From UHGV virus genome UHGV-1353889: a stretch of DNA of 49,011 bases; one strand, given 5' to 3'. The DNA is from a virus. This document shows positions 3,709 to 49,011 of this stretch, piece by piece. The first letter of the stretch is position 1; every line of letters begins with the position of its first letter. Both the position numbers and the translations under genes were made by a program. A model generated the notes under the pieces. That model ran no database searches. It saw nothing but the letters and a program-made list of their open reading frames with translations, and was not told where the DNA came from.

Positions 3709-3724
3709 GGTAAATTCCTCTTTG

Positions 3725-4039: not shown

Positions 4040-4050
4040 AGGCGATACCG

Positions 4051-5988: not shown

Positions 5989-6018
5989 AGGATGCTCCTT
6001 CTGTTTGATTGCATAACG

Positions 6019-8337: not shown

Positions 8338-9054
<717 letters not shown>

Positions 9055-16162: not shown

Positions 16163-16167
16163 AATAT

Positions 16168-28495: not shown

Positions 28496-28950
28496 TGATT
28501 ACATTCAAACCAACGCGAAACATCGACCTGATAGAAGCCGTAGGAAATCACCCTGACATTATCGCTGGTAGCAACAACGGTGATGGATACGACTACAAAC
28601 CTGAATGCCGTTACTTTGAGGTGAACGTGCACGGGCAGTTCGGCGGAATTGTTTACTATCAGGAGATTCAGCCGCTAACCTTTGATTGCCACGCCATGTA
28701 CCTGCCAGAGATTCGTGGATTCAGCAAGGAAATCGGGCTGGCGTTCTGGCGATACATTCTGACTAACACCACCGTTCAGTGCGTCACATCGTTCGCCGCA
28801 CGCAAATTCCGCCACGGGCAGATTTACTGCGCAATGATTGGCCTTAAGCGTGTAGGAACCATCAAGAAATACTTCAAAGGCGTGGATGACGTGACTTTTT
28901 ACAGCGCCACACGCGAAGAACTAATCGACTTCCTGAATCACGGGAGATAG
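28495..28950 (+). CDS. Tail/ejection-associated protein (gp14-like)
   Basis: 151 aa, synteny. Confidence 0.4.
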   Translation: MITFKPTRNIDLIEAVGNHPDIIAGSNNGDGYDYKPECRYFEVNVHGQFGGIVYYQEIQPLTFDCHAMYLPEIRGFSKEIGLAFWRYILTNTTVQCVTSFAARKFRHGQIYCAMIGLKRVGTIKKYFKGVDDVTFYSATREELIDFLNHGR

Positions 28951-28952
28951 CC

Positions 28953-29645: not shown

Positions 29646-29655
29646 GGGGTAATCA

Positions 29656-33113: not shown

Positions 33114-33337
33114 TCAACTTTGGTTATTTTGCCTTCTTTTTCTTGATGAACTTTGCATCCATCATCTTTTGATAGCCAAACTAAAAACTTTAAAACCTTA
33201 AACACAAGTACGGCTACTGCAATGAAAGCACCAATCGAAATTATTGCTAGTGAAATTATTTGCATTGGTGCTTTTAATGCAGGGAAAATAGTGTAAATGA
33301 TCGCGAAAACAGTAATTATGAGGAACCATCGCTTCAC
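33110..33337 (-). CDS. Small two-helix membrane protein (sieA-position accessory gene)
   Basis: 75 aa with two hydrophobic helices; divergent from the Panacea-like gene. Confidence 0.4.
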   Translation of the reverse strand: MKRWFLIITVFAIIYTIFPALKAPMQIISLAIISIGAFIAVAVLVFKVLKFLVWLSKDDGCKVHQEKEGKITKVD

Positions 33338-33705
33338 ACCAACCTCCTTAGTTTTGAGCAGGATACCAGATGATACTTTATTGGTGGAGTGGTGTGTGAA
33401 AACGTGTCAACGACAAACCATCCACAACTTGGACGAATGATTTAGCAAAAAGTGCTATTTTTGGTGTTTGGTGTCATAGAAAAGTGAATAGCTCACTTTT
33501 CAACATTGCATGAAACTTGCAGGAAATGTGACATTACCTTATAGGTAACTTCGGCGAAAATGCAGTAAATGTGAAACGTAATGGTTTAAACATGTCGCTA
33601 AAGTGGTTGTAAGTTAGCCTCCGAAGGATTGCTGATAGCTTTGTTATAGTATTAAATGACATTTGACATAGTTGGATACTTAGCTGTGGCTATCAAGATG
33701 GAGGT

Positions 33706-34155
33706 GTGTTCATGCTTACTTGTTTTGATGTCGCCGACTACTTCCTGTCGCGGTGTGACGAGGATAGCGGTGACACAATCTCTAATTTAAAATTACAAAA
33801 GCTTGTTTACTATGCTCAGGGTTTTTCATTGGCGTTGCTTGGCGAGCCTCTTTTTCAGAATAAGATGGAAGCTTGGATGCATGGCCCTGTTGTCCCTGAG
33901 CTTTATCGCCGTTATAAACAATATGGTAATGGCGCTATCCCTTCTCCAGAGTCTTTTGATGCTGAAAAATTCAGCGAAGAACAGTTAGAGCTATTAGAAG
34001 AAGTCTGGGATGTTTTTGGGCAATTTTCTGCCTGGAAACTGAGGAACATGACACACGAAGAGTCACCATGGAGATCAAACTATATTGAGGGTGTTGGTGG
34101 TTCTGAAATTAGCTCTAAGGAGATGGCAGAGTACTTTGCAACTCGGATTAACTAA
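33706..34155 (+). CDS. Panacea (DUF4065/COG3600)-like domain protein, putative antitoxin/adaptor
   Basis: 149 aa; NLKLQKLVYYAQG ... EAWMHGPVVPELY matches my recollection of the DUF4065 signature. Confidence 0.6.
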   Translation: MFMLTCFDVADYFLSRCDEDSGDTISNLKLQKLVYYAQGFSLALLGEPLFQNKMEAWMHGPVVPELYRRYKQYGNGAIPSPESFDAEKFSEEQLELLEEVWDVFGQFSAWKLRNMTHEESPWRSNYIEGVGGSEISSKEMAEYFATRIN

Positions 34156-34159
34156 CGAG

Positions 34160-34579
34160 ATGGCAAGAAAATCTAAAAGGATTATCCCCCCTGCTGAATC
34201 TACAGGTAAGTTAAAGTTAGGGCCGCAGTCAGGGGGGAATTCAGATCAAAAGAAACCGAAGTTTTCATTCTGTTACATCCAAAGCTCTCACTGCATAACG
34301 AAATGCCAAAAAGATGAGAAAGCTGGCTTAGCTGATAAATTATACAGATTAAGTCAACTAACATGGGCAGAGATTAAGCAGCAAGGTAGGCATAAGCTTG
34401 GATTTGAGAAGATTGCAAGGGGTGCAATTAAAGCAGGTATCCCCAGTCATATAACGGAAGACGTAGATCATTTCTTGGCTTTTAGATTTGATGATTTGAA
34501 AGCCATGGTTGGTTATCGTCTTGGATCGACATTTTTTGTTATATGGCTTGATAGAGAGTTCAACCTATACAAGCACTAA
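34160..34579 (+). CDS. Uncharacterized 139-aa partner of the Panacea-like gene (candidate toxin/effector)
   Basis: ATG 5 nt after upstream stop; basic disordered N-terminus, C-terminal beta-rich segment YRLGSTFFVIWLD; terminator follows. Confidence 0.5.
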   Translation: MARKSKRIIPPAESTGKLKLGPQSGGNSDQKKPKFSFCYIQSSHCITKCQKDEKAGLADKLYRLSQLTWAEIKQQGRHKLGFEKIARGAIKAGIPSHITEDVDHFLAFRFDDLKAMVGYRLGSTFFVIWLDREFNLYKH

Positions 34580-34582
34580 TAA

Positions 34583-34607
34583 AACCCACCGTCAGGTGGG
34601 TTTTTTA
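34583..34607. terminator. Bidirectional intrinsic terminator
   Basis: Hairpin AACCCACCGTCAGGTGGGTT flanked by A-run upstream and T-run downstream. Confidence 0.65.
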
Positions 34608-34631
34608 TAAGGAGTAATCATGATTTACCCA

Positions 34632-35168
34632 TCAAACAACCCACCAGTTTGCCTGATTGGATGCCAGCCTTGCAGTTTTTATGGAATTAATTATGCCATG
34701 CTCAAGAGCCTTGTTAGCATCCAAAATGGTCGAGTCTGCTATCAGGGATGCCCACCTAATATGGGTTCCGATGTCGATATTGAACGTCTCAACGAAGCGA
34801 TCAAGATCGTTATCGAGGCATTTCCCGTACTCTCTCAGTCTGGCATGGTCGGCGGCTGGGGTGGCAAAGCCCCATAATAGAGGATGTAACAGGAATCTTG
34901 ATAATGGGTTTGCGAAACGTTCTGAGCCAGCCAGGAAAACGATATTAGCTATGGATTCAACATTGCTTATGTTGTGAGTTCTAACGGTAACAGGGAGTGA
35001 CTTAAGAAAGTTATACGCAGTAAAACCAGCGGCAGTTTCCCCTCCCTGACTTGATATATGGATATTTAATTCAGTTGCGCCTTGAGATAATGCGGTGAGA
35101 CAGTGGTTCTGAAGTTGCCCAACAGTGGCGGTGTTAACGGGGCATAAGAAATGAATTGTGTGCAGCAT
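34632..35168 (-). CDS. ClpP-like (S14-family fold) serine peptidase homologue
   Basis: 178 aa; ISSQGGETAAG parallels ClpP INSPGGVITAG; candidate triad Ser (VESIA), His (LLHPL), Asp (ILDAN); start overlaps mnt stop (TAATG). Confidence 0.6.
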   Translation of the reverse strand: MLHTIHFLCPVNTATVGQLQNHCLTALSQGATELNIHISSQGGETAAGFTAYNFLKSLPVTVRTHNISNVESIANIVFLAGSERFANPLSRFLLHPLLWGFATPAADHARLREYGKCLDNDLDRFVETFNIDIGTHIRWASLIADSTILDANKALEHGIINSIKTARLASNQANWWVV

Positions 35169-35416
35169 TATTTATCATCCTTACCATACATGGTTTTCAG
35201 CGTCTCCAGCAGCGCCTCTTTGAATTTGTCAGCTTCTTGCTGAGCAAATGACTCAACTGACTTTGGCGACCTATCTTCATCAATCGCGGCTTGCAAAATC
35301 ATGACGATCTCGGAGTTAACAGAGCGACCATTTTTTGATGCTCTAACAGCAAGAGCCTCGCGTAAAGATTCAGGGATTCTTACCGTAGTTGGAGAAATTG
35401 ACACACCCTTTGCCAT
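35168..35416 (-). CDS. mnt: Mnt-like repressor (ribbon-helix-helix)
   Basis: 82 aa; NGRSVNSEI RHH motif, same length as P22 Mnt. Confidence 0.7.
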   Translation of the reverse strand: MAKGVSISPTTVRIPESLREALAVRASKNGRSVNSEIVMILQAAIDEDRSPKSVESFAQQEADKFKEALLETLKTMYGKDDK

Positions 35417-35530
35417 AACACACCTTTGGTATTCAATTTGATATCAAAGTGTATGCAAAAAAATTTTGACTAGATATACTCACTTTGCTATCTTTTGTAT
35501 TCGAAAAGAGTTGTTTGTGTGGAGGGTAAC
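35417..35530. promoter_or_regulatory. Divergent immI promoter/operator region (mnt versus arc-ant)
   Basis: Palindrome TTTGATATCAAA and further inverted repeats between divergent RHH repressor genes. Confidence 0.45.
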
Positions 35531-35683
35531 ATGGAGAAAGAAATAAGTAAGATTTTGGTAAGGATGCCGCAGTCGTTAAAGGATGCTATCGGTAGCAGGG
35601 CAAAGGAAGAGTGCAGGTCGTTTAACTCAGAGGTTATCAAGCGCCTGATAGACAGCCTGAAGAAAGAGGGGGTGGCGATATGA
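35531..35683 (+). CDS. arc: Arc-like repressor (ribbon-helix-helix)
   Basis: 50 aa from ATG at 35531 with GGAGGG RBS; CRSFNSEVIKRLIDSLKKEGV parallels P22 Arc. Confidence 0.7.
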   Translation: MEKEISKILVRMPQSLKDAIGSRAKEECRSFNSEVIKRLIDSLKKEGVAI

Positions 35684-35862
35684 ATAAAGAAGATGGCTTT
35701 AAGTGCTCCTTCTGCGGAAAGCCTCAGCATGAATGTGCAATGTTGATTCGCGCTAAAGCAGAGATATTTATCTGTAGTGGTTGTGTATCTCTTTGCGTTG
35801 AAGCGATGGGGAAAGAGTTAAATTCTAGAAAAACAATGTTAGATGTGAACATAAAACAGTGA
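35680..35862 (+). CDS. ClpX N-terminal zinc-binding-domain-like protein (ZBD only)
   Basis: 60 aa; [10 protein letters not shown] ... [10 protein letters not shown] parallels ClpX ZBD CSFCGKSQHE ... YICDECVDLC; ATGA overlap with arc stop. Confidence 0.6.
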
Positions 35863-35924
35863 AGCCCCAACTGCGGGAACAGTCAGGGCTTCGGTTGTCA
35901 GTAAATCCGTGGAGAAAAACCAAC

Positions 35925-36827
35925 ATGAATAGTATAGCAATTTTAGAAGCAGTGAACACCTCTTACGTACCATTCAACGGTCAGCAAATTATCACCGCCA
36001 TGGCTGCCGGAGTTGCATATGTTGCGATGAAGCCAATCGTTGAAAACCTCGGAATGAGCTGGGGTACTCAGCAACAAAAACTTATGAAACAACTAGATAA
36101 GTTCAAATGTATTCATATGAATATGGTTGCTGCTGATGGAAAGCTTCGTAAGCTACTCTGCCTTCCTTTGAAGAAGTTAAATGGATGGCTGTTCAGCATC
36201 AACCCTGAGAAAGTTCGTGCTGACATCCGTGATAAACTGATTCAGTACCAGGAAGAATGCTTTACTGTACTGCATGACTACTGGACAAAGGGAAAGGCAG
36301 AAAATGCACGTAAGAAAACATCTGTTGATGACAGGACTCCGCTTCGTGATGCTGTAAATATGCTAGTCAGCAAAAAGCATCTAATGTACCCAGAAGCTTA
36401 TGCAATGATTCATCAGCGTTTCAATGTGGAAAGTATTGAAGAGCTTGATGCATCTCAGATACCGCAAGCCGTAGAGTACATCCACAGGGTAGTGCTTGAA
36501 GGTGAATTTATCGGCAAACAAGAGAAGAAAACCAACGAGTTTTCTGCAAAAGAAGCAAACAGCCTTGTATGGTTATGGGATTATGCCAACCGTTCACAGG
36601 CATTATTCCGCGAACTGTATCCGGCATTAAAACAAATTCAATCGAACTATTCCGGCAGATGCTACGACTACGGTCATGAGTTCTCGTATGTTATCGGAAT
36701 GGCGAGGGACGTTTTAATCAATCACTCACGAGATGTTGATATCAATGAGCCAGACGGACCAACGAATCTTTCCGCATGGATGAGACTTAAGAATAAAGAA
36801 TTACCTCCTTCAATACATAACTACTGA
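35925..36827 (+). CDS. ant: Antirepressor Ant
   Basis: 300 aa from ATG at 35925 (GGAGA RBS), same length as P22 Ant; follows arc in immI arrangement. Confidence 0.65.
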
Positions 36828-36844
36828 CAGATAACCAACGCAAC

Positions 36845-36870
36845 GACCCAGCTTCGGCTGGGTTTTTTTA
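36845..36870 (+). terminator. Intrinsic terminator after ant
   Basis: Hairpin CCCAGCTTCGGCTGGG followed by T7. Confidence 0.7.
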
Positions 36871-37005
36871 TGCCCAAAATTCACCGCAGCAACTAAGCGG
36901 CGATTGCCTTCATGGATAGCACTACGAAATTTTCGTAGTTCAAAAACCAAACAAATACCAACCGTAGCCATGCTGCGGCGATTCCTTGTATCTGGAGCAA
37001 ATTAA

Positions 37006-39951
37006 ATGACAGACATTACAGCCAATGTTGTAGTGAGTATGCCTTCGCAACTCTTCACTATGGCGCGTTCTTTTAAAGCAGTTGCCAATGGCAAAATTTA
37101 TATCGGTCAGGTTGACACTGACCCGGTAAATCCTGAAAACCAGATTCAGGTTTATGTAGAGAACGAAGACGGCTCGCACGTTCCTGTTTCGCAACCAATC
37201 ATCATTAACGCTGCTGGATATCCGGTATATAACGGACAGATTGCCAAATTCGTAACCGTGCAAGGCCATTCTATGGCTGTTTATGATGCGTATGGTACAC
37301 AGCAGTTCTATTTTCCTAATGTGCTGAAGTATGATCCTGATCAGTTACGGCAGCAATTAGAAGACCCAGATGGAGCGAATAAATACCCAAAACTTCAGAT
37401 AGCAAGATGGAGAGACAGTTATGATGTAAGAGGTTGGGGGGCTATTGGTGATGGTGTTCATGATGATACATCAGCTCTATCAGAATTACTTTCTGTTGCA
37501 ACAGGTGGTGAAAAGATAGATGGGCGAGGGCTTACTTTTAAAGTATCAACTCTTCCAGATGTCAGTCGATTTAAAAATGCTCGTTTTTTATTTGAGAGAA
37601 TACCGGGTCAGCCTCTTTTTTATGCTTCTGAAGATTTTATCCAGGGAGAGTTATTTAAAATTACAGATACACCGTGGTACAACGCCTGGACGCAGGATAA
37701 AACGTTTGTATATGACAATGTCATCTATGCGCCTTTTATGGCTGGAGACCGCCATGGTGTAAATAACCTCCATGTTGCATGGGTTCGCTCAGGAGATGAC
37801 GGGAAGACCTGGACAACGCCGGAATGGCTTACAGATTTACATGAAAACTATCCCACAGTTAACTATCACTGCATGAGTATGGGGGTTGTCAGAAATCGCC
37901 TTTTTGCTGTAATTGAGACGCGGACCGTGAGCGGAAATAAACTGCAGGTTGCAGAGTTGTGGGATCGCCCAATGAGTCGCAGCCTTCGCGTTTATGGTGG
38001 TATAACGAAAGCAGCAAATCAGCAAGTCGCTTATATTCGCATTACTGATCACGGATTATTTGCTGGTGATTTTGTCAACTTCTCAAACTCTGGTGTTACA
38101 GGTGTTACCGGGAATATGACGGTGACTACTGTTATTGATAAAAATACTTTTACAGTTACGACGCAAAATACCCAGGATGTGGATCAGAATAACGAGGGTA
38201 GATACTGGAGTTTTGGTACATCATTTCACTCGTCACCATGGAGAAAAACCAGTCTTGGAACTATTCCTTCTTTTGTTGACGGAAGCACTCCTGTTACTGA
38301 GATTCACAGTTTTGCGACGATTAGCGATAACAGTTTTGCTGTTGGCTACCATAATGGTGATATTGATCCACGCGAGCTTGGGATACTCTATTTCTCTGAT
38401 GCTTTCGGTTCTCCTGGTAGCTTTGTTCGCAGACGCATACCTGTAGAATATGAGGCGAATGCATCTGAGCCATGTGTAAAATATTATGATGGCATTCTGT
38501 ATCTGACGACCAGGGGGACATTAAGTACTCAACCCGGTAGTTCATTGCACAGAAGCTCTGATTTAGGTACATCATGGAATTCTCTTCGCTTCCCAAATAA
38601 TGTTCATCACTCAAACCTTCCTTTTGCCAAAGTTGGCGATGAGCTGATTATTTTTGGCAGTGAGCGCGCATTTGGTGAGTGGGAAGGAGGAGAACCTGAT
38701 AACCGTTATGCAGGAAATTATCCAAGAACATTTATGACCAGAGTTAACGTCAATGAGTGGAGTCTGGATAATGTAGAGTGGGTTAATGTTACTGATCAGA
38801 TTTATCAGGGCGGAATAGTTAACTCTGCGGTTGGTGTTGGTTCAGTTTGTATCAAAGACAACTGGCTGTACTACATTTTCGGTGGGGAAGACTTTCTAAA
38901 CCCATGGAGCATAGGGGATAACAACAGAAAATATCCTTATGTTCACGATGGTCACCCGGCTGATTTGTATTGTTTCAGGGTGAAAATTAAACAGGAAGAA
39001 TTTGTTTCAAGGGATTTTGTCTACGGAGCCACTCCTAACAGAACGCTTCCTACTTTTATGTCGACGTCAGGCGTGAGGACGGTTCCTGTACCCGTTGATT
39101 TCACAGATGATGTTGCCGTCCAGTCACTGACTGTCCATGCAGGTACATCAGGAAAAGTTCGCGCGGAAGTCAAACTTGAGGGTAATTACGCCATTATTGC
39201 GAAGAAAGTACCGTCTGATGATGTTACCGCTCAGAGATTAATCGTTAGCGGCGGTGAAACAACGTCTTCAGCAGATGGTGCAATGATAACGTTGCATGGT
39301 TCCGGAAGCAGTACTCCACGTCGCGCGGTATATAACGCACTCGAACATCTTTTTGAGAACGGAGATGTTAAACCTTATCTTGATAATGTAAATGCTCTTG
39401 GTGGTCCGGGAAACAGGTTCTCGACAGTTTATCTTGGCTCCAATCCTGTGGTTACCAGTGACGGAACATTAAAGACAGAGCCGGTCTCTCCTGACGAAGC
39501 ATTGCTGGATGCCTGGGGTGACGTCAGGTATATCGCTTATAAATGGCTGAACGCTGTCGCTATAAAGGGGGAAGAAGGGGCGAGGATACATCATGGTGTA
39601 ATCGCGCAGCAACTTCGTGATGTTCTTATTTCTCACGGACTCATGGAAGAAGAAAGCACAACATGCCGCTATGCGTTTCTTTGCTATGACGATTATCCCG
39701 CAGTATATGATGACGTCATTACTGGCCAAAGGGAAATGCCGCTGACTGATAATGACGGGAGCATCATTGTTGATGAGGATGATAATCCAGTGATGGTAAT
39801 GGAAGACATCATTGAGCGCGTTGAAATAACGCCAGCAGGATCTAGATGGGGGGTCAGACCTGATCTCTTATTCTATATCGAGGCGGCATGGCAGCGCAGA
39901 GAAATAGAAAGAATAAAAGCTAGGTTAGACTTAATAGAAGGGAAGCACTAA
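37006..39951 (+). CDS. Tailspike: P22 gp9-type head-binding domain fused to endosialidase-like Asp-box domain and C-terminal intramolecular-chaperone domain
   Basis: 981 aa; N-terminus matches P22 tailspike head-binding domain; Asp-boxes SGDDGKTW and SSDLGTSW; C-terminal self-cleaving chaperone-like module. Confidence 0.75.
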
Positions 39952-40240
39952 ATGTTTCGTTGGCGTCAAAAATATGAACTGCTCACATAAAGAAGTAAGC
40001 ACATTGGCAAAAAACATTGACGTCAACGAAATTAAATATAAAACATCATGCAGACATATTACCAATATTAATATAAGGTAATAAAAATATAATTTACAAA
40101 AAAGCCCGTTGGAAGCGACGGGCATTAACCGCGGTAATGGATAAATTATTAATGTTTTTAGATTGTGAACGATATCATATTGTGCGGAAGTAGTGAAGTA
40201 ACCATGTAAAATGATTGTTTCATAGCCTATGAGACACACA

Positions 40241-40360
40241 AGGCTTTGTGCTCTTCGATAGTTGTTAAGGCGGATCACTCTACCTTCTCATCAATCCAGT
40301 CCGCCCACCACTGCATCATTTCTCTGCGCTTATCGAGATACTGAGCATGGTTGTAAATTC
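40241..40360. repeat. Right copy of 120-bp direct repeat (integrase 3'-end fragment)
   Basis: 118/120 identical to 1-120; encodes last ~28 codons of integrase with an in-frame stop just upstream. Confidence 0.8.
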
Positions 40361-40429
40361 AACTAACCCAGTCCGTTGACAAAAAATTAGCGCAAGAGGA
40401 CAAAAAATCACCTTGCGCTAATGCTCTGC

Positions 40430-40660
40430 CTCAGGTCACTAATACTATCTAAGTAGTTGATTCATAGTGACTGGATATGTTGTGTTTTGTAGTATTATGC
40501 AGTCTATTATTTAGACTAAACCCTTCATAACATATTGATATTTACAGTGTTTTCTGTTTCTCGTTCAGCTTTTTTATACTAAGTTGGCATTATAAAAAAG
40601 CATTGCTTATCAATTTGTTGCAACGAACAGGTCACTATCAGTCAAAATAAAATCATTATT
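40430..40660. other. Lambda-type attachment site with P-arm-like, core (GCTTTTTTATACTAA at 40568-40582) and P'-arm sequences, i.e. attP-like rather than attL
   Basis: Core 15-mer exact; right flank matches lambda P' arm into int; left flank resembles lambda P arm (CAGGTCACTAATAC ... TTCTCGTTCAGC). Confidence 0.8.
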
Positions 40661-41726
40661 TGATTTCAATTTTGTCCCACTCCCTGCCTCTGTCATCACG
40701 ATACTGTGATGCCATGGTGTCCGACTTATGCCCGAGAAGATGTTGAGCAAACTTATCGCTTATCTGCTTCTCATAGAGTCTTGCAGACAAACTGCGCAAC
40801 TCGTGAAAGGTAGGCGGATCCCCTTCGAAGGAAAGACCTGATGCTTTTCGTGCGCGCATAAAATACCTTGATACTGTGCCGGATGAAAGCGGTTCACGAC
40901 GAGTAGATGCAATTATGGTTTCTCCGCCAAGAATCTCTTTGCATTTATCAAGTGTTTCCTTCATTGATATCCCGAGAGCATCAACATGCAATGCTGTTGG
41001 GATGGCAATTTTTACGCCTGTTTTGCTTTGCTCGACATAAAGATATCCATCTACGATATCAGACCACTTCATTTCGCATAAATCACCAACTCGTTGCCCG
41101 GTAACAACAGCCAGTTCCATTGCAAGTCTTAGCCAATATGGTGATGATTCTGCTGCTTGATAAATTTTCAGGTATTCGTCAGCCGTAAGTCTTGATCTCC
41201 TTACCTCTGATTTTGCTGCGCGAGTGGCAGCGACCGGGTTTGTTGTTATATGGCCTTCAGCTATTGCCTCTCGGAATGCATCGCTCAGTGTTGATCTGAT
41301 TAACTTGGCTGACGCAGCCTTGCCCTCGTCTATGTATCCATTGAGCATTGCCGCAATTTCTTTTGTGGTGATGTCTTCAAGTGGAGCATCAGGCAGACCC
41401 CTCCTTATTGCTTTAATTTTGCTCATGTAATTTATGAGTGTCTTCTGCTTGATTCCTCTGCTGGCGAGGATTTTTTCGTAGCGATCAAGCCATGAATGTA
41501 ACGTAACAGAATTATCACTGTTGATTCTCGCTGTCAGAGGCTTGTGTTTGTGTCCTGAAAATAACTCAATGTTGGCCTGTATAGCTTCAGTGATTGCGAT
41601 TCGCCTGTCTCGGCCTAATCCAAACTCTTTACCCGTCCTTGGGTCCCTGTAGCAGTAATATCCATTGTTTCTTATATAAAGGTTAGGGGGTAAATCCCGG
41701 CGCTCATGACTTCGCCTTCTTCCCAT
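40656..41726 (-). CDS. int: Integrase (lambda Int)
   Basis: 356 aa, near-identical to lambda Int as I recall it. Confidence 0.95.
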   Translation of the reverse strand: MGRRRSHERRDLPPNLYIRNNGYYCYRDPRTGKEFGLGRDRRIAITEAIQANIELFSGHKHKPLTARINSDNSVTLHSWLDRYEKILASRGIKQKTLINYMSKIKAIRRGLPDAPLEDITTKEIAAMLNGYIDEGKAASAKLIRSTLSDAFREAIAEGHITTNPVAATRAAKSEVRRSRLTADEYLKIYQAAESSPYWLRLAMELAVVTGQRVGDLCEMKWSDIVDGYLYVEQSKTGVKIAIPTALHVDALGISMKETLDKCKEILGGETIIASTRREPLSSGTVSRYFMRARKASGLSFEGDPPTFHELRSLSARLYEKQISDKFAQHLLGHKSDTMASQYRDDRGREWDKIEIK

Positions 41727-41922
41727 TTCTGATCCTCTTCAAAAGGCTACCTGTTACTGGTCGATTTAAGTCAACCTTTACCGCTGATTCGTGGAACAGA
41801 TACTCTCTTCCATCCTTAACCGGAGGAGGGAATATCCTGCACTCGCGTACCCATCGACGAACTGTTTCAAGGCTTCTTGGGCGTCGCTGGCGTGCGTTCC
41901 ACTCCTGAAGTGTCAAGTACAT
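41704..41922 (-). CDS. xis: Excisionase (lambda Xis)
   Basis: 72 aa, MYLTLQEWNARQRRPRSLETVRRWVRECRIFPPPVKDGREYLFHESAVKVDLNRP matches lambda Xis. Confidence 0.95.
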   Translation of the reverse strand: MYLTLQEWNARQRRPRSLETVRRWVRECRIFPPPVKDGREYLFHESAVKVDLNRPVTGSLLKRIRNGKKAKS

Positions 41923-41961
41923 CGCAAAGTCTCCGCAATTACACGCAAGAAAAAACCGCCA

Positions 41962-42129
41962 TCAGGCGGTTTGGTGTTCTTTCAGTTCTTCAATTCGAAT
42001 ATTGGTTACGTCTGCATGTGCTATCTGCGGCCACAGCATCCAGTGGTCATAGCAGTCGTTGATGTTCTCCGCTTCGATAACTCTGTTGAATGGCTCTCCA
42101 TTCCATTCACCTGTGACTCGGAAGTGCAT
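41962..42129 (-). CDS. Small hypothetical protein (55 aa)
   Basis: Manual ORF MHFRVTGEWNGEPF ... NIRIEELKEHQTA; its 3' end plus terminator hairpin recurs as a start-less fragment at 1651-1740. Confidence 0.4.
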   Translation of the reverse strand: MHFRVTGEWNGEPFNRVIEAENINDCYDHWMLWPQIAHADVTNIRIEELKEHQTA

Positions 42130-42201
42130 TTATCATCTCCATAAAACAAAACCCGCCGTAGCGAGTTCAGATAAAAGAAATCCCCGCGAGTGCGAGGATT
42201 G

Positions 42202-42486
42202 TTATTTATTGCCGATATTCACCTTTATCGCGAACACCTTTACCGGTTTATCTCCGAAGTGCGGATGTGTGATTGTCTTGATTTCATACCCTTCATACGG
42301 GACGTCTATTCTGCGACTGGAGTCGTCGCGCTTCGGATATCCCTTTGTGATAATCAGGCGGTCATATTCCCGGAACATGATTCGCTTATTCCAGTAGTCA
42401 TTACACAGGCGATACTCTTCCGTCTTCTCTCCGCGAATCATGGCATCGAAGTATTCACCTTTAACGGCAAGTTGCAGGTTAGCCAC
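42202..42486 (-). CDS. ASCH/PUA-like (DUF3850-like) domain protein, tentative
   Basis: Probable GTG start at 42484-42486 with AAGGAG RBS; GEYFDAMIRGEKTEE resembles ASCH-domain N-terminal motif; track ORF 42202..42570 over-extended. Confidence 0.4.
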   Translation of the reverse strand: MANLQLAVKGEYFDAMIRGEKTEEYRLCNDYWNKRIMFREYDRLIITKGYPKRDDSSRRIDVPYEGYEIKTITHPHFGDKPVKVFAIKVNIGNK

Positions 42487-42985
42487 AGTTAACTCCTTGC
42501 TGTGTGGCGTCGAGTAATAAATCCCACAACCGCTGAGAGCAATTTCCGCATGTACAGCGTTGACCCACAACGTTTATCGCGTTGCTGATTTCCGGCGTTA
42601 CCTGTTTAGGAACCATAACCCAACCATCCGGAGTTACCGGATAGTTGCCATCCAGCGCGTTCAACTTGTAAGTCTGGCTTACAGGTTTGACACCGTGAAG
42701 CATGGCGGCGCGGTGACACCAGATAATCCAGCCCAGCGCCATATCCCATGCCATGTATTCTCTATCACCATTTTTTGCCCTGCGGCGATCTACAGATTCC
42801 CCGAAACGCTTCTCCATAAATAATTCATAGGCTGCCCGTTCATCCGATACTGCTGCCAGCGATGCCAGAGCAATTCGTGCCAGTTCTTCCGCTTCTTCTG
42901 CTGGCAGTACAACGTTGCTACCCGGCCCGTATGTTTCGCGCCACTGCTTGATTGTCAGCAGTCGCTCTTTGGTAATAGTGGTCAT
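42479..42985 (-). CDS. Early-left accessory protein, DUF551-like C-terminus
   Basis: 168 aa; shares MTTITKER N-terminus and YPVTPDGW motif with 2050..2664. Confidence 0.5.
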   Translation of the reverse strand: MTTITKERLLTIKQWRETYGPGSNVVLPAEEAEELARIALASLAAVSDERAAYELFMEKRFGESVDRRRAKNGDREYMAWDMALGWIIWCHRAAMLHGVKPVSQTYKLNALDGNYPVTPDGWVMVPKQVTPEISNAINVVGQRCTCGNCSQRLWDLLLDATQQGVNCG

Positions 42986-43191
42986 TTGTTAATCCTCAAA
43001 ACTTTATGCCCAGGCGCAAAAGCACGCGTTTTGTCTTTGCTTATTCGCCAGCCATCCTTGCGCGCCTCTTTTGCACAGCCAGCCCATGACGTACCTATAT
43101 ACTCACCGAAGTCTGGCACTGGATATACACCTTCCGTACACTGGCGGCAGTCACAATAGAGATGCATTGTGTAACTTGCAGCGATAGCCAT
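42982..43191 (-). CDS. Small Cys-rich hypothetical protein
   Basis: 69 aa from ATG at 43189-43191 (AAGGAG RBS, overlaps upstream stop); CDCRQC motif. Confidence 0.35.
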   Translation of the reverse strand: MAIAASYTMHLYCDCRQCTEGVYPVPDFGEYIGTSWAGCAKEARKDGWRISKDKTRAFAPGHKVLRINK

Positions 43192-43192
43192 A

Positions 43193-43807
43193 TCACTCTC
43201 CTTTGATGCGAATGCCAGGGGCGCGTGGCACATTAACTTCCACGATGCGCACTGTTGGTTTGTACATCTCAATCGCTGTCAGCCAGTCAGCTCCTGTCAT
43301 GCGCTTTTCCGCATCGCCATTAGTCCACTGAACCGGTACACCAATAGCCTTCATCGCGGTTTCTATTTCCCCGGCGATGGCGCTTTTCCCGCAACCAGTA
43401 AAACCAGAAACAACGACAAGAACTTCACCTTGGGCTGGTTTTATTTCCCGAGCTTCCAGTTCTGCAATGCGCTGTTTTGCGGCATCAAGTTCAATCGATA
43501 ATTTTTCCAACTGCTCTTTATGCTTCTTGTATTCCTGATATGCGTGCCAGGACTGACCTTTGCGCACACTATCAGTAATATCAGTAATCTGTTCTGGTGT
43601 TAGAGTGGTCAGTGGCTGTGCTGGGAAAATAAGCACTTTCCCGGCATCCCAATCAAAACCAGCGTGAATTGACTGAACCTCAACTGAGGGTGTTGAACCA
43701 ATGCTGCCAGGCGAATGAACAACGATCGTTACATCCATATCGCGACGATGGCTGTGGTTGTTGGACAAAATACGATTCACCAACTCAGAAAATTTGGAAA
43801 ATTTCAT
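43193..43807 (-). CDS. Ea22-like early protein (full length)
   Basis: 204 aa; coiled-coil KQRIAELEAREI and C-terminal GIRIKGE as in 2860..3111. Confidence 0.5.
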   Translation of the reverse strand: MKFSKFSELVNRILSNNHSHRRDMDVTIVVHSPGSIGSTPSVEVQSIHAGFDWDAGKVLIFPAQPLTTLTPEQITDITDSVRKGQSWHAYQEYKKHKEQLEKLSIELDAAKQRIAELEAREIKPAQGEVLVVVSGFTGCGKSAIAGEIETAMKAIGVPVQWTNGDAEKRMTGADWLTAIEMYKPTVRIVEVNVPRAPGIRIKGE

Positions 43808-44094
43808 GCTGATTCCCCTTTCTCTGCTCTCTCCTGTCGGAACATCACTATCATCAGGTCGCCTTTTGTCGCTATCCTGGCTGTTGTACCTGGTTCAATG
43901 CGGCTAAGCTCAAATGCGTCATAGAACGCTTCTAATGCCTTCTGGCGTAGTTCCTGTTTGCGCCGTTTTTTCCACTGTTTTAGGAAAATGGAACCCAGCC
44001 ATCGCCATGTACGGGACATGATGTAAAGCCAACCGAGAAGTGCCAGACCGGTATTTAGGAGCGTATCGATCGTTATTGTCGTGTCGATATTCAC
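43804..44094 (-). CDS. Hypothetical protein with N-terminal hydrophobic helix
   Basis: 96-aa ORF. Confidence 0.35.
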
Positions 44095-44258
44095 TGGTTG
44101 CCTCCTTTGCGCAACATCGCATTCAGATATTTGTTTTGATTCACTGATGGAAAAGAATTTCTCTTAAGCAATTCCTCTCTCGATGGCATTGGCTTTACGC
44201 GTTGGCGAATAATCATTTCTGACGGAAGAATGCCGGGATTGTATGCAAGTCCTCTCAT
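44091..44258 (-). CDS. Small conserved protein (55 aa), copy of 3541..3708
   Basis: Manual translation; one substitution relative to element 1 copy. Confidence 0.45.
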
Positions 44259-44536
44259 GATTTACTCTCCACGAACTGGTCAATAGCCATGCTAAGTGAT
44301 ACACCTAAAGTCTCGATATGCTGCTGAATATCCTGTAGCGTCTGCGCCTGAGATAACAGGATTTCACGGTTGCATAACTCTTTGACCAGATGCTCAAACT
44401 TGCTGTAATAACCGATACGGCTTAGTGTTTCTTTCCCTGCATTCTCACCTTCTTTGATAATTCCTCTTTCATTAAGAATCAGGTCGTGTTTTGTTCCAGT
44501 AATAACGTATTTACCGAGGTCGATGTTTAGCTTCAT
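44255..44536 (-). CDS. Hypothetical protein (insertion relative to element 1)
   Basis: 93-aa ORF present only in element 2 between the 55-aa and 104-aa genes. Confidence 0.4.
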
Positions 44537-44552
44537 TGTTAATTACTCCATG

Positions 44553-44867
44553 TTAATTTATTTGTATGCCTGCTCTTTTTTCATCGAGTTTTTTTAGCTT
44601 GTATCGCATAGCTCTTACTGAATAAATTGAGCGGCAGGTTGCAATTGCTATTTCTTCTGCGGAGAACTTACCGAAAAGTGATACTTCGGCTCTTGTCCAG
44701 CGTCTTCCACGAAGTCGGCTAACAATGTCAGCGCCAATCCTTGTTGCTTTCGCCATTACTGCTTTTTCAGTCCTTTCCAGTTTTTCAGCGATAACTTCAA
44801 CTGGCATTGTCGCCGCTACTTCGCGTAAGAAATCGACTTCCCATTTCTCCCAAGGAGTCTTTTTCAT
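44553..44867 (-). CDS. Conserved phage protein, putative DNA-binding (copy of 3725..4039)
   Basis: 104 aa, 3 substitutions near C-terminus relative to element 1. Confidence 0.45.
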   Translation of the reverse strand: MKKTPWEKWEVDFLREVAATMPVEVIAEKLERTEKAVMAKATRIGADIVSRLRGRRWTRAEVSLFGKFSAEEIAIATCRSIYSVRAMRYKLKKLDEKRAGIQIN

Positions 44868-44878
44868 AGGCGATACCG

Positions 44879-45367
44879 TTATTTGATAAGAAGTGAAGGT
44901 TTCCCAACTTTGAGTTGAGCACCGGGGATATTTATTCCTGCTTTTAGTTGGTGTTTGATTGCCAGTTTGTCGGCTTTAATTGTCGTTTCGAACTCAACGT
45001 ATTCAGGAGGAAGGGCGCTTGAGTCGATGATTTCTACAGTTTCTGACGGTTTGCGGATTGTTACCTGGTGAATACCTGCTCGAATCTTTTTCTTTCCAAC
45101 CATTTCAAGCGATGACGCTATATACGTCATAATGCTATCAATCTTATTTTGAATTACTGCTGCTCTTTCATTCAGTGACTTTGCCTCTTCCTTGAGGCGT
45201 TCAGCATAACCAGACTCATTTTTAATGATGGCAAGAAGTTGCTCTATTTTATCGGTAAATTCTCCTTCCATGCCTTCTATTGTGTCAGCAATCATCTCTG
45301 GTTCTAAATCTGAATCCATCAATTTTGCGTATTCATTGGCAATTTCATACAGTTTGCTCACTGGCAA
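44879..45367 (-). CDS. Gp157-like protein (copy)
   Basis: Identical to 4051..4539. Confidence 0.5.
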   Translation of the reverse strand: MPVSKLYEIANEYAKLMDSDLEPEMIADTIEGMEGEFTDKIEQLLAIIKNESGYAERLKEEAKSLNERAAVIQNKIDSIMTYIASSLEMVGKKKIRAGIHQVTIRKPSETVEIIDSSALPPEYVEFETTIKADKLAIKHQLKAGINIPGAQLKVGKPSLLIK

Positions 45368-46256
45368 CCTCCAGTTTCGCTTTGCATTCTATGTAAATGG
45401 CTTGTACGTTCTGCTGCAATTTCATTCCAGATGTCAGGCGATATGCTTCTGCAAAATATCGCTTCAAATCATCCATGTTTTCTGCCTGAGCCATTTCATC
45501 ACAAAGAAGTTGTGCTTTATCCGTTATTTCCTGCTGGCGTTTCCGTTCATCTTCGCGGATATCTTCCTCTGATTTGTGCGGCATAACTGGTTCAGTCCAC
45601 ACACCTTCTTCTTCGTTTAGTACGTGAATAGCACTATCAAGACGTGATGCCTTAGGCCAATACTTGCTTGCACGCTTTACGACCGTCTTTCGCGCCATCT
45701 CATTCCAGTGATTTACCCATGGTCCTTTATCGCTGAATGCCGCCTTGCTTGTTTTCCTTACAGCCTCAATTTCAGCCAGACTCATCTCTTCCGTTAGATA
45801 ATCACCTGCTGGCGTCTTAACTGTGCAGTAAACGCCAACGATATCACCACGATCACCGAAGGCGTTGTATTTATGGGTTGGTGCTTTATCAAGCCCGTTT
45901 GACTCATAGGTATCGTTAGCATGAACAAGTTTTGCCTGACCCCATGAGATAACACCAGACTCCATTGCAATATGGAGCAATCCCATATAGCTGATATCAA
46001 GGCAAACCATGCCGTCGCGCGGAACCAGATAAGCCAGTTTGCTAGCCGGGTTTAAGGTGATGCCGATCGCCGCAACATTGATGATGGCGTTCTGTGCGCT
46101 GGTTGGATTTGCCAGTGCCGTTTTAGCCAGGTAATCATTTTTCTGGAAATACTGAATTGCAAACTGGCTTTCCTTAGCCCATGTCACCGTCTGTTCAGTC
46201 AATGCTCCGCAGAATAACTGCTCCTGCTGTTTAACGAATTCAACGATATTGCTCAT
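45345..46256 (-). CDS. RecT-family single-strand annealing recombinase (copy)
   Basis: Identical to 4517..5428. Confidence 0.75.
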   Translation of the reverse strand: MSNIVEFVKQQEQLFCGALTEQTVTWAKESQFAIQYFQKNDYLAKTALANPTSAQNAIINVAAIGITLNPASKLAYLVPRDGMVCLDISYMGLLHIAMESGVISWGQAKLVHANDTYESNGLDKAPTHKYNAFGDRGDIVGVYCTVKTPAGDYLTEEMSLAEIEAVRKTSKAAFSDKGPWVNHWNEMARKTVVKRASKYWPKASRLDSAIHVLNEEEGVWTEPVMPHKSEEDIREDERKRQQEITDKAQLLCDEMAQAENMDDLKRYFAEAYRLTSGMKLQQNVQAIYIECKAKLEVASEQTV

Positions 46257-46564
46257 GCTGCTTCTCCATAAATGTGTCTGCGTTTGAATATTGCGAAGGC
46301 ATATTCAGCCTTAACTCTTTCGGTTATTGCATCCCAGAACCATTCAGCGGCTTTTTCCTGATAGTTACAATCATCATCTTCCAGCCAGTCGATAGCGTCC
46401 TTAGTGTGTTCACCTGGTTTATATGAGCGAAGCATTTCGCTTATTGGGTCGCAACGTTTGCAGAGGCGATCAACTTCACTGTTGATTCGCTCGTAATCTT
46501 CATCAGTAAAACTTGCGATTATTTGCGATATTTCACGCTTATCATTCAGAGTCAGAATCATCAT
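46253..46564 (-). CDS. Hypothetical early protein (copy of 5425..5736)
   Basis: 103 aa with one substitution; track ORF 46253..46672 is an artificial read-through across the N gap. Confidence 0.45.
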   Translation of the reverse strand: MMILTLNDKREISQIIASFTDEDYERINSEVDRLCKRCDPISEMLRSYKPGEHTKDAIDWLEDDDCNYQEKAAEWFWDAITERVKAEYAFAIFKRRHIYGEAA

Positions 46565-46574
46565 CTTTCTCCTG

Positions 46575-46603
46575 NNNNNNNNNNNNNNNNNNNNNNNNNN
46601 NNN
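46575..46603. other. Assembly gap (29 N)
   Basis: Run of N characters. Confidence 1.
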
Positions 46604-46946
46604 TTTGTTCATCTGACGAATGAATTCTTCGTCTGACCAGTTATCTGTAAAACTCATTTCCTGCGATACCATGGAAGGTTGATAGCTGATTTCATCGCTT
46701 TATTTGCTTCAAGCCACATTTTTGAATCACCAATAAATCGGGCTATTACTGCTTTGTTTTGTGCAGCACGAAGCATCTGGTGATTAATGGCTATTTCATT
46801 GCGCATAATAAGACCTCAACTCTTTTCCATCCGTCACGTAATTTACGGGTGATTCGTTCAAGTAAAGATTCATTTAGTTGGAAGGCACCCATGCGAGCGC
46901 CTCCCGCGATTGCGTAAATCATGGGTGGTTCCTTATGTTGGTTTTA

Positions 46947-47915
46947 TTAGTAGGTTATTTTTGTTGCGAATACTTCGCCTTTTACGATGGCTGTTATGAT
47001 ATTTTTAGCAACATCTTCTGATGCGCCAACCTTGATAAGGTCAGCAAGTATTTTGTTATTTACGTCTTTCCGGTGAGCCTTATCCTTTGCTCTACGCTCT
47101 TCTTCGTCCTTGATTCTTTTTTCTTCTGCTATTCTGGCTTGCTCTTTTGCTTCAGCCTCGCGACGGATTCGTTCAGCCTCCTCCTGTGCTTTTCTGCGTT
47201 CTACTTCAATTGCTGCCTGCTTTTCTCTTTCAGCTCGTTCTGCTGCCTCTTTTGCTTCGCGCTGTGCTCGTTGCTCGGCTTCAATGCGTTCACGCTCTGC
47301 ACGCTCCGCTGCGGCCTTAGCTTCTGCTTCTCTCCTTGCTGCTGCTTCAATGTCGGCTTTTGCCTTTGCTTCGGCTTCTGCTCTGGCTTTCTCTTCAGCT
47401 TCTCTTTTTAAGCGGTCTTCATGCTCTCGCTTTTCCTGCTCCTCTTTGAGTCTTGCCTCTTCTCTTTGTCGGTCAAATTCGCGATCCATCAAAATCGCTA
47501 TTTCATGGTCAGACTCAATTTGCTTTGCGAGAGCTTCAGCTGCTGCCTTAGCTTCTTCTTCGGCTTTAATCCGCGCCTGTTCTTCCTCATAATCAGTAAG
47601 AGGCTGGCGTGCCTTGGCTTTCAGCTCATCAAGTCGATCACGCACTGTTTTGCGGTTGGCATCAATTAGCTTTGGAATTTCCTTCAGTTCAGCAACAAGG
47701 TCTTTGCCAAGACCATCGAGATATGTTTTCGTCTGCGCAACTTTATACGCCAGAGAAGCGATCTCCTTTCTGCCCTTTGCCGTTGTGATATCAGGCACAA
47801 AGGACATAACTTCACTTTCAACCTTTTGAAGGATTTCTTCAATCTGGTCGGCAGACTGAAATACAGTCATTGCATTTGCTTTTTCAATAACAACTAAATC
47901 TGTTACTTCACTCAT
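46947..47915 (-). CDS. Hypothetical protein with long Glu/Ala/Arg/Lys-rich coiled-coil region
   Basis: 322 aa; globular N-terminal ~120 aa then ~170 aa EAR-rich repeat; plus-strand ORFs in this span are low-complexity artefacts. Confidence 0.5.
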   Translation of the reverse strand: MSEVTDLVVIEKANAMTVFQSADQIEEILQKVESEVMSFVPDITTAKGRKEIASLAYKVAQTKTYLDGLGKDLVAELKEIPKLIDANRKTVRDRLDELKAKARQPLTDYEEEQARIKAEEEAKAAAEALAKQIESDHEIAILMDREFDRQREEARLKEEQEKREHEDRLKREAEEKARAEAEAKAKADIEAAARREAEAKAAAERAERERIEAEQRAQREAKEAAERAEREKQAAIEVERRKAQEEAERIRREAEAKEQARIAEEKRIKDEEERRAKDKAHRKDVNNKILADLIKVGASEDVAKNIITAIVKGEVFATKITY

Positions 47916-47949
47916 ATATCCTCCTTCGTTGTATTCTTTAAAAACGCTC

Positions 47950-48318
47950 TCAGGCGGCTTTGATAGTCATATCATCTGAATCAAATATTCCTGATGTATC
48001 GATATCGGTAATTCTTATTCCTTCGCTACCATCCATTGGAGGCCATCCTTCCTGACCATTTCCATCATTCCAGTCGAACTCACACACAACACCATATGCA
48101 TTTAAGTCGCTTGGAATTGCTATAAGCAGAGCATGTTGCGCCAGCATGATTAATACAGCATTTAATACAGAGCCGTGTTTATTGAGTCGGTATTCAGAGT
48201 CTGACCAGAAATTATTAATCTGGTGAAGTTTTTCCTCTGTCATTACGTCATGGTCGATTTCAATTTCTATTGATGCTTTCCAGTCGTAATCAATGATGTA
48301 TTTTTTGATGTTTGACAT
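47950..48318 (-). CDS. Acidic hypothetical protein
   Basis: 122 aa, Asp/Glu-rich C-terminal half. Confidence 0.45.
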   Translation of the reverse strand: MSNIKKYIIDYDWKASIEIEIDHDVMTEEKLHQINNFWSDSEYRLNKHGSVLNAVLIMLAQHALLIAIPSDLNAYGVVCEFDWNDGNGQEGWPPMDGSEGIRITDIDTSGIFDSDDMTIKAA

Positions 48319-48468
48319 CTATTCATATCCTCATAGATAAAAAATCGCCCTCACACTGGAGGGCAAAGAAGATTTCCAATAATCAGAACAAGTCGGCTCC
48401 TGTTTAGTTACGAGCGACATTGCTCCGTGTATTCACTCGTTGGAATGAATACACAGTGCTTATTCGTA

Positions 48469-48939
48469 CTAATAAAACACCCAATTTTCTGTTTCTTGGT
48501 TGTGTCCAAAGTTATATTCAATATCTGGTGTTGATGTATCAATATTCTTCATCCCATCAACAAGAGTTGATACAACAGCCAAATCTTGTTTGATTCTCAT
48601 CAAATGGTATTTCTTCCGGCGCAATAAACTTTCAATGGCAAGTTTCTTCGTCGGGAATGCAAAAGATCTTTCTGCATTTTTTGCTACTTTCTTAATTGCA
48701 TATCTATTTCTCCTTTGTTTCCATTCCTGTAACCACAGATTTGGTGCTGGTTTAAAATTAACAATCCAATGCGCAGGAACCAACCATGCATAATGCTCTG
48801 TCTGATGAAAAGCTATATATTGAAGTGCGAATATTTTGATTCCATCTTCTTCAACTGTCGCTTGGAATCTCCAGAAAACAGGCATTCCATCATGTTCAGT
48901 TTCTGATTCAGGAAAAGGTACGCTCCATGATTTTGTCAT
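48469..48939 (-). CDS. Hypothetical protein (moron inserted within tL-like hairpin cluster)
   Basis: 156 aa; flanked by sequence that is contiguous in element 1 (6061-6221), insertion bounded by CAGTGC. Confidence 0.5.
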   Translation of the reverse strand: MTKSWSVPFPESETEHDGMPVFWRFQATVEEDGIKIFALQYIAFHQTEHYAWLVPAHWIVNFKPAPNLWLQEWKQRRNRYAIKKVAKNAERSFAFPTKKLAIESLLRRKKYHLMRIKQDLAVVSTLVDGMKNIDTSTPDIEYNFGHNQETENWVFY

Positions 48940-49011
48940 ATCTCACCTCAAATAATTCAGTGCAGTGTTTATTCTGTTGTTTATGCCAAAAGAAGGCCGA
49001 CTATGCGGCCT

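Follow-up and report, generated by a model that had tools for sequence, protein, structure and literature searches.

The near-identical repeat carried by the window (the whole 49,011-nt stretch analysed here, UHGV virus genome UHGV-1353889) is probably one phage recombination (Rec) module that two co-occurring variants of a single P22-like E. coli phage have in common; the variants would have been assembled end to end. The original prediction had assumed that one molecule carries two tandem elements, whose repeats, 40 kb apart, act as a substrate for deletion. The repeat itself, its genes, the extra gene in the second copy and the link to a gap in the scaffold all hold, whereas the tandem elements and the deletion substrate are probably wrong, as both att sites are intact attP sites, the first 6.2 kb of the window and the second element are colinear, and the window starts and ends exactly 54 nt inside sequence shared by the two arms.

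Self-BLAST and global alignment place the two copies in direct orientation, both on the minus strand, at 3526-5821 (copy 1) and 44078-46657 (copy 2); the boundaries proposed earlier lie within about 40 nt of these. The copies align as a large colinear block (3705-5821 and 44533-46657; 2125 columns, 97.9% identity with a run of Ns scored as mismatch) and a small one (3526-3709 and 44078-44259, 95.1%). When the N run is set aside, the large block differs by 10 SNPs over ~2.1 kb (~99.5% identity), five located at 3735-3788 and five at 5542-5692. Between these clusters, a core of 1753 nt (3789-5541, equivalent to 44617-46369) is 100% identical, with zero differences. Relative to copy 1, copy 2 carries an insertion of 274 nt (44260-44532) that holds a 93-aa ORF. 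The similarity of the repeats is far above chance. Among 5426 complete E. coli genomes, no match to either copy is as close as the copies are to one another (best match 98.8%), and the loci that we fetched reach only 98.1-99.0% over the core, below the similarity of the two copies. Natural relatives show 18-150 nt differences across the span of the 1753-nt core.

Profile searches against Pfam and PHROG returned the gene content expected from the original prediction, all of it on the minus strand. In copy 1, the module comprises a 55-aa DUF2737 gene (3541-3708; Pfam PF10930, E=9e-32), a 104-aa gene (3725-4039; phrog_11492, E=4.5e-23, and phrog_323, E=5e-20) that matches part of the PHROG family "D5-like transcriptional regulator", a Sipho_Gp157/MuGam-type gene (4051-4539), a gene for a 303-aa RecT-family single-strand annealing protein (4517-5428), and a 103-aa gene (5425-5736; phrog_3486, E=2e-59) that is conserved upstream of RecT in related loci. 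The Gp157-like protein matches the Sipho_Gp157 profile (PF05565, E=1e-36) with 126.6 bits against a cut-off of 28.6, and phrog_253 "Mu Gam-like end protection" with E=2e-53; its match to Phage_Mu_Gam (PF07352; 17.2 bits, E=0.005) falls under the cut-off of 28.3. The predicted role of the protein is DNA-end binding that counters RecBCD. The RecT assignment is based on PF03837 (E=2.9e-32; 112.3 bits, cut-off 24) and phrog_148 (E=3.7e-92), and this homology suggests that the protein anneals single strands. Sequence searches of the PDB found no solved relative of the RecT protein, and only coiled-coil noise for the Gp157-like protein. The additional 93-aa gene of copy 2 (44255-44536, minus strand) is a DUF5405 gene (PF17399, E=5e-6; phrog_154, E=6e-32), and at this spot the gene is present in some phages and absent from others. 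None of the five module genes matched a nuclease or SSB family among the Pfam and PHROG profiles.

The Rec module is a catalogued, widely shuffled unit. The HK140-type lambdoid module has been described as a SAP-4/RecT-type annealing protein with a MuGam-type anti-RecBCD protein, without nuclease or SSB, and the HK140 homologue is classed as MuGam type (Genome Res 2025, PMC12315714). The module in the window shares its gene set and gene order, with a RecT-type annealing protein gene adjoining a MuGam-type gene and no exonuclease or SSB, and it occupies the same place in the early-left operon, flanked by DUF2737/ead-type genes on one side and kil/cIII on the other. There is no substantive difference between the two, as the DUF5405 gene of copy 2 is optional and variable in other phages too. 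At the nucleotide level, copy 1 is 97.5-98.2% identical to HK140, mEpX1, Gally and Kapi1 (97.5% to HK140, over 98% of the query, and to mEpX1; 98.2% to Gally). The module, whole or partial, is detected in 21% of complete E. coli genomes. As is typical of lambdoid and P22-like mosaicism, the same flanking genes elsewhere adjoin Erf+Abc2 or Rad52-like+SSB recombinase sets, and the same Rec module is found with different flanks. Unlike in the usual mosaicism, the 1.75 kb core is 100% identical between the two versions in the window and, in the assembly as it stands, so is the 34 kb backbone, which indicates either very recent divergence or assembly collapse. Likewise, the identical core with SNPs only at its margins could reflect a very recent exchange or one collapsed graph node that was written twice.

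The regions around the two copies carry different integration systems. The first region encodes an IntS-type tyrosine integrase (35-1228, minus strand; 385 aa from the ATG at 1192), and the exact protein adjoins yfdC/argW in many E. coli genomes. It is followed by an argW-type attP core (1352-1368, plus strand), an exact match to the 17-mer AATGGTGTCCCCTGCAG that has been described as the Kapi1/Sf6/KplE1 type (PMC8787464), and by a TorI-like xis gene of 66 aa (1442-1642). Upon integration, int and the 66-aa xis come to lie at opposite ends of the prophage (related loci; PMC8787464); attR-type loci match the window from 1700 to 1352 and attL-type loci from 1368 to 1101. In the window, the core lies between int and xis, and the argW-type attP is intact.

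The second region begins with what remains of an IntS-type int gene, 123 nt from its 3' end (40241-40363, minus strand), which are 97.6% identical to positions 1-123. Many prophages at the lambda attB also carry this remnant, at their right end. Retention of this fossil beside a lambda att/int cassette is a further instance of lambdoid mosaicism. Next comes an intact lambda-type attP, read directly from the sequence (40380-40640, plus strand; P arm, core and P' arm), with the core GCTTTTTTATACTAA at 40568-40582. The right ends of chromosomal prophages at the lambda-type att stop at 40586 and the left ends start at 40568; free phage genomes run uninterrupted across the site. The adjacent lambda-type integrase (356 aa; 40656-41726, minus strand) is found as the exact protein adjoining ybhC at the lambda attB in E. 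coli genomes, and is followed by a xis gene (41704-41922). Given that both attP sites are intact, neither "element" has integrated via its own att site.

This observation bears on whether two separate prophages of one E. coli chromosome, at argW and the lambda attB, were mis-joined by the scaffolder through shared late genes. Both integrase types are normally found at those chromosomal sites, and some complete E. coli genomes have up to four places that match the module. We nevertheless consider such a mis-join very unlikely, as both att sites have the POP' (attP) arrangement, no host-phage junction, attL, attR or host DNA was found within the window, and att cores of 15-17 nt are too short for an accidental fusion in a k=55 graph. 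Moreover, a contig from an independent assembly, described below, crosses the lambda attP without forking into host DNA.

The structure of the scaffold points to the assembly itself. A gap of 29 Ns (46575-46603) lies over a 129-nt shared node, equivalent to 5693-5821, and takes the place of 21 nt of copy 1 (5747-5767). On each side of the gap, exactly 54 nt are identical to copy 1 (5693-5746 with 46521-46574, and 5768-5821 with 46604-46657), and the same 21 nt as in copy 1 occupy the gap position in all nine related loci, so the gap corresponds to a repeat node that the assembly left unresolved. This supports the earlier proposal that ties the repeat to the N gap. Judging from these relatives, the gap very probably stands for the 21 nt TTCTTTGTGCTGATTGAGCAT. 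That the N run marks a genuine difference in sequence, or a mask, was considered and rejected, because the relatives uniformly have 21 nt there.

The same length recurs at the ends of the window. The first 54 nt (1-54) are identical to 40241-40294, at what would be the graph vertex where the backbone forks into two arms, and the last 54 nt (48958-49011) are identical to 6168-6221, where the arms would rejoin the backbone. At all four breakpoints (window start, window end and both gap flanks), the shared sequence thus extends for exactly 54 nt after the last position at which the arms differ. This pattern is the signature of a k=55 graph, although the assembler and its k are only inferred from the shared length, which is 54 and not 55. 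The 1753-nt core was written twice without a gap, yet the 129-nt shared node failed, so read length alone is an insufficient cause; we would guess that a coverage-guided choice of path lies behind this discrepancy.

All repeats between 1-6221 and 40241-49011 are direct and in the same order by self-BLAST, a colinearity that suggests the second region to be another version of one genome arm. A P22-like backbone of 34 kb (6222-40240) with the immunity, replication, nin, lysis, head and tail genes and a K1-type tailspike is present once in the scaffold. Genomes of relatives are 38-46 kb, and the repeat offset of 40,240 nt equals one genome length of this P22-like group. As in the over-length contigs that arise from circular genomes, the window combines a one-genome offset, a second pass that is colinear with the first, and scaffold ends and gap flanks located k-1 nt inside shared sequence, as a walk through an assembly graph produces. 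It is unlike the artefact of identical terminal repeats in that the second pass follows the alternative branch of a bubble, and simple tests for direct terminal repeats would therefore miss it. Simple terminal redundancy of a circular genome was considered and rejected, since the second pass differs outside the module. Taken together, the intact attP sites, the colinearity and the 54-nt scaffold ends indicate that the copies are most likely allelic, representing the same locus in two variants, and not paralogues on one molecule.

At face value, the order of the scaffold would be that of a single phage genome with a true internal duplication of the int/early-left region and two different integrases. 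This is extremely improbable, as the genome would exceed 49 kb, compared with 38-46 kb in relatives, and no related record has such an arrangement. Furthermore, the window breaks off on the right within sequence identical to 6168-6221, so that any "duplication" would need to run on into a second backbone.

Exact-pattern scans of GTDB genome contigs, IMG/VR and JGI metagenome contigs did not recover the window; the three matches in IMG/VR are merely right ends of prophages with other tailspikes. In an independent Logan assembly of run SRR5677845, for which a literature search returned nothing, positions 27006-41509 recur at 100% identity on a contig that leads from the tailspike straight into the second region. 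This contig has no break at ~40361, where the first arm should fork off; this arm may therefore be rare or absent in SRR5677845, and the scaffold may derive from another run or a co-assembly. In sibling runs (among SRR5677765, SRR5677805 and SRR5677844), genes of the second arm are on short, high-numbered contigs, which suggests that these runs are metagenomes. The tRNAs of the window are located solely at 16088-16243, and the tRNA search of the window found no tRNA gene at either arm junction.

The array would be real if two related P22-like genomes were linked in head-to-tail order on one molecule, whether in a heterodimer, a concatemer or a multi-copy tandem prophage; this is unlikely but has several observations on its side. 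P22-like phages replicate through concatemers, tandem lambda-type dilysogens carry an intact attP between the copies, and the junction of tailspike, attP and lambda int is present in assemblies of raw reads. In E. coli ExPEC XM (NZ_CP025328), a close relative forms a real tandem prophage whose two copies flank an attP (attL-prophage-attP-prophage-attR), in the order tailspike, int remnant, attP and lambda int. The window likewise has an intact lambda attP (40380-40640) after a complete set of late genes and before the lambda-type int, between the two units. In an array of this kind, the Rec modules would be true direct repeats 40.8 kb apart, and a RecA- or RecT-mediated crossover would release a hybrid circle of 40.8 kb. 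Unlike a lambda-type dilysogen, however, the window does not have the same att/int in both units bounded by attL, attR and host DNA; the upstream unit has a different integrase with its own intact attP, and its start is without the lambda-type attL and int that such a tandem demands. A chromosomal array that fits the window would thus have to contain three or more copies of the backbone. At 49 kb or more, the molecule would also exceed the 38-46 kb genomes of the group and could not be packaged whole, and the scaffold ends and gap flanks, all of which stop 54 nt into shared sequence, imply that the assembler had no linkage information. A physical array of the form arm-backbone-second arm-backbone would yield the same graph as two variants of one phage.

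The reading that we favor, two variants of one phage strung together, can be laid out as follows. The whole window would be a scaffold from a de Bruijn graph with k of ~55, built from a mixed sample, probably a metagenome. The graph would have a single 34 kb backbone (6168-40294) and, over the integrase/early-left arm, a bubble with two branches, with one branch (arm A, 55-6167) carrying the IntS-type integrase and argW-type attP and the other (arm B, 40295-48957) the lambda-type integrase and attP with the fossil of the IntS-type gene. The scaffold would traverse this circular genome graph slightly more than once, from arm A through the backbone into arm B. Ordinary lambdoid mosaicism combined with an assembly artefact is thus the most likely account of the window.

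The Rec module is transcribed from the minus strand, within the early-left (pL) operon. Together, the RecT-family and Gp157/MuGam-type proteins would serve recombination-dependent replication as well as exchange among related phages. As the module is common to both variants, a crossover within it would bring the kil/cIII side into a new combination with the integration arm (int, att and distal early-left genes), which is standard lambdoid module shuffling. Recombination between the copies is plausible, but would be an exchange between genomes that swaps the integration arm, and not a 40 kb deletion. More specifically, the window could derive from two K1-specific P22-like phages of one gut sample that have an identical 34 kb backbone and the fully identical 1.75 kb RecT/MuGam module and, through a very recent exchange in the wild mediated by this module, swapped integration systems (IntS/argW for lambda int/attB), with the crossover in the interval between the SNP clusters at 3735-3788 and 5542-5692; we regard this combined scenario as possible but doubtful.

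The main value of these results is as a caution. The scaffold mimics two tandem prophages with a recombination-prone duplication, but the att sites, colinearity and breakpoints instead indicate two variants of one ~40 kb phage placed in series, and prophage counts, duplication counts or a genome size taken from this contig would mislead. In biological terms, the window adds to the cases in which a well-catalogued Rec module provides mosaic lambdoid phages with a stretch of common homology. Should two variants that share an identical backbone prove to coexist, they would offer a natural snapshot of integrase-module exchange, and not a new mechanism.

Comparison of the window with itself identifies 3705-5821 as a direct repeat of 44533-46657, and an adjoining stretch, 3526-3709, matches 44078-44259 in the same orientation with 95% identity. 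In a base-by-base alignment, the larger block has just 10 substitutions between the copies (five within 3735-3788 and five within 5542-5692), bearing out the near-identical direct repeat of the original prediction. An exact-repeat scan detects no differences over the 1753 nt of 3789-5541 and 44617-46369, here called the core. Copy 2 has a surplus of 274 nt (44260-44532) relative to copy 1, and carries 29 N at 46575-46603 where copy 1 has 21 nt. The predicted gene content was also recovered, with coordinates shifted by at most ~40 nt. Every ORF of this recombination module is on the minus strand; the products are of 55 aa (DUF2737), 104 aa (function not assigned), 162 aa (Sipho_Gp157; PHROG 'Mu Gam-like end protection'), 303 aa (RecT family), 103 aa (phrog_3486, function not assigned) and, as the extra gene of copy 2 only, 93 aa (DUF5405).

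The first 40,240 nt (1-40240) constitute a complete P22-like genome that resembles Kapi1 and CUS-3. It is ordered as integrase, early-left genes, repressor, replication genes, nin region, lysis genes and then late genes (terminase, portal, coat, ejection proteins and a K1 endosialidase-type tailspike). The sequence from 40241 onward is colinear with 1-6221. It opens at 40241-40363 with a repeat of 1-123, where the first integrase gene has its 3' end, continues towards the recombination module with short matching islands that keep the order of the first arm, and after the module matches again at 48337-48459 (6051-6173) and 48958-49011 (6168-6221). We therefore read 40241-49011 as a variant of that arm and not as a second element of different layout. 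We refer to the two versions as arm A (55-6167) and arm B (40295-48957). We consider it likely that they belong to two versions of one phage genome that occurred together, each with an intact attP, and that the assembler wrote these serially, so that the 'duplication' is allelic. The assembly graph would then be a circle, with the 34 kb backbone closed by a bubble of arm A or arm B, and the scaffold would walk from arm A through the backbone to arm B.

The integrase of arm A is IntS-like, and the exact 385-aa protein adjoins yfdC/argW in many E. coli genomes. In those loci, neuO or gtr genes and then a tailspike directly follow the integrase gene. A 66-aa ORF (1442-1642 in the window) lies at the opposite prophage end beside dsdC; in the window, integrase and ORF adjoin each other. 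Loci of attR type match from 1700 to 1352 and those of attL type from 1368 to 1101, and the matches overlap in the 17-nt AATGGTGTCCCCTGCAG, which occurs once (1352-1368). An attP between int and xis is common to Kapi1, Sf6, HK620 and KplE1, and is the same site as AATGGTGTCCCCTGCAG (PMC8787464). The site at 1352-1368 is an intact attP, and arm A is not integrated.

Arm B opens with the 123-nt integrase fossil, followed by a complete lambda attP, a lambda-type integrase gene (356 aa) and xis. From reading the sequence, we take the attP to comprise the lambda P arm, the core GCTTTTTTATACTAA at 40568-40582 and the P' arm. Chromosomal prophages match one side only up to 40586 and the other only from 40568, and free phage genomes, for example 434 and HK97, are continuous across the region. 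The exact integrase protein is usually found at ybhC, the lambda attB site. Arm B is not integrated either. The fossil, which stands directly beside the intact lambda-type cassette and which many E. coli prophages at lambda attB also carry at their right end, is a trace of integration-module replacement.

The attP-intact form of both versions would represent excised, replicating or virion DNA. It conflicts with two separately integrated prophages having been mis-joined, which we regard as quite improbable. A real tandem or heterodimer of two genomes has a counterpart in E. coli ExPEC XM, where a close relative forms a tandem with attP in the middle, but is itself unlikely: the upstream unit has a different integrase with its own intact attP, so a chromosomal array would need at least three backbone copies, and a molecule of at least 49 kb is not packageable by a phage whose relatives measure 38-46 kb. 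As assembled, the ExPEC XM locus (NZ_CP025328, 825082-867695) holds two related prophages separated by an intact attP, and the second of them has lost everything from replication genes to ejection genes.

All four assembly stops found by the exact-repeat scan lie exactly 54 nt past the last base that distinguishes the arms. At the window start, 1-54 equals 40241-40294 and the first difference is at 55; at its end, 6168-6221 equals 48958-49011, with a difference immediately before. The left gap flank (5693-5746, equal to 46521-46574) follows a SNP at 5692, and the right flank (5768-5821, equal to 46604-46657) precedes divergence at 5822. This pattern is as expected of a k=55 de Bruijn graph whose path runs into a shared node, and it implies that the window is the entire scaffold. 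A single phage with a true internal duplication conflicts with the genome size and with a right end that stops in backbone-identical sequence, and is highly improbable. The claimed tandem duplication is thus probably an assembly artefact, given the colinear arms, the two intact attP sites and the 54-nt breakpoints.

In each of nine related loci that share the anchors, copy 1's exact 21 nt stand at the position of the N run. We therefore rejected a sequence difference and regard the gap as a scaffold join of the wrong size, placed over a shared node of 129 nt. The core was written in both passes, yet a gap was left at this node; our guess is that coverage-guided path choice by a metagenome assembler lies behind it. 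The copies have 0 differences over the 1753-nt core, versus 18-34 nt in relatives with an identical RecT protein; this is consistent with a very recent exchange and equally with a single graph node printed twice.

An independent Logan contig of run SRR5677845 (20,185 nt) is 100% identical to 27006-41509 and reads continuously from the tailspike across the fossil and lambda attP to within the lambda-type integrase gene. The tailspike/arm B junction is therefore present in reads. This contig does not branch into host sequence at the att core, which speaks against simple integration at attB, nor into arm A at ~40361, so arm A may be a minor variant in SRR5677845. In neighbouring runs, the contigs with arm B genes are short and have very high numbers, suggesting a metagenome series. 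The Logan contig ends at ~21325 (portal gene; extrapolated from contig coordinates) and ~41509 (lambda-type integrase), which points to additional variant forks in the sample and a backbone that may be non-uniform.

The backbone has several other features. The tailspike (37006-40240; Pfam End_N_terminal, End_beta_propel, End_tail_spike and Peptidase_S74) is of K1 endosialidase type and 98-99% identical to those of CUS-3-like prophages; the neuO/acyltransferase gene found between tailspike and integrase in CUS-3 and ExPEC XM is absent from the window. A 301-aa protein (7346-8251, minus strand), named 'BstA-like C-terminal domain-containing protein' in source databases, adjoins a cI-like repressor (8338-9051) and may be a prophage-encoded abortive-infection defence. 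The immI-side cargo (33706-35862), assigned by Pfam matches on the identical Logan contig, includes a SocA_Panacea-domain protein (33706-34155), a ClpP-like protease (34632-35168, minus strand), an Arc-like repressor and a small ClpX zinc-finger protein (35680-35862). Two phage-borne tRNA genes, for tRNA-Ser(GCT) and tRNA-Thr(TGT) (16088-16243), precede the lysis genes. A 35-nt direct repeat (97%; 10489-10523 and 10582-10616) within the replication O-like gene probably represents origin iterons.

HK140, mEpX1, Gally and Kapi1 carry the same recombination module; 94-98% of the query aligns with theirs, at 97.5-98.2% nucleotide identity. HK140 has been described as having a type-4 strand-annealing protein and a MuGam-type anti-RecBCD protein without nuclease or SSB, and the same 2025 survey of 325 lambdoid phages stresses the free shuffling of Rec modules (PMC12315714). 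Of 5426 complete E. coli genomes, 1120 match the module whole or in part; 265 of the 1120 have it nearly complete, and a single genome has up to four matching places. Its neighbours vary among other loci (DUF5405 present or absent; kil/cIII or a 56-aa ORF), and elsewhere other recombinase sets (Erf+Abc2, Rad52-like+SSB) lie between the same neighbours. This is textbook mosaicism, and the biology of this mosaic module is already catalogued.

By homology, the RecT-family protein would act in single-strand annealing; the predicted role of the Gp157/MuGam-type protein is to shield DNA ends from RecBCD. The two genes are co-transcribed with the early-left operon, and their products would aid recombination-dependent replication as well as exchange with related phages. 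Present in both arms, the module offers 2.1 kb of near-perfect homology, and a crossover inside it would give new combinations of the int/att and kil/cIII sides.
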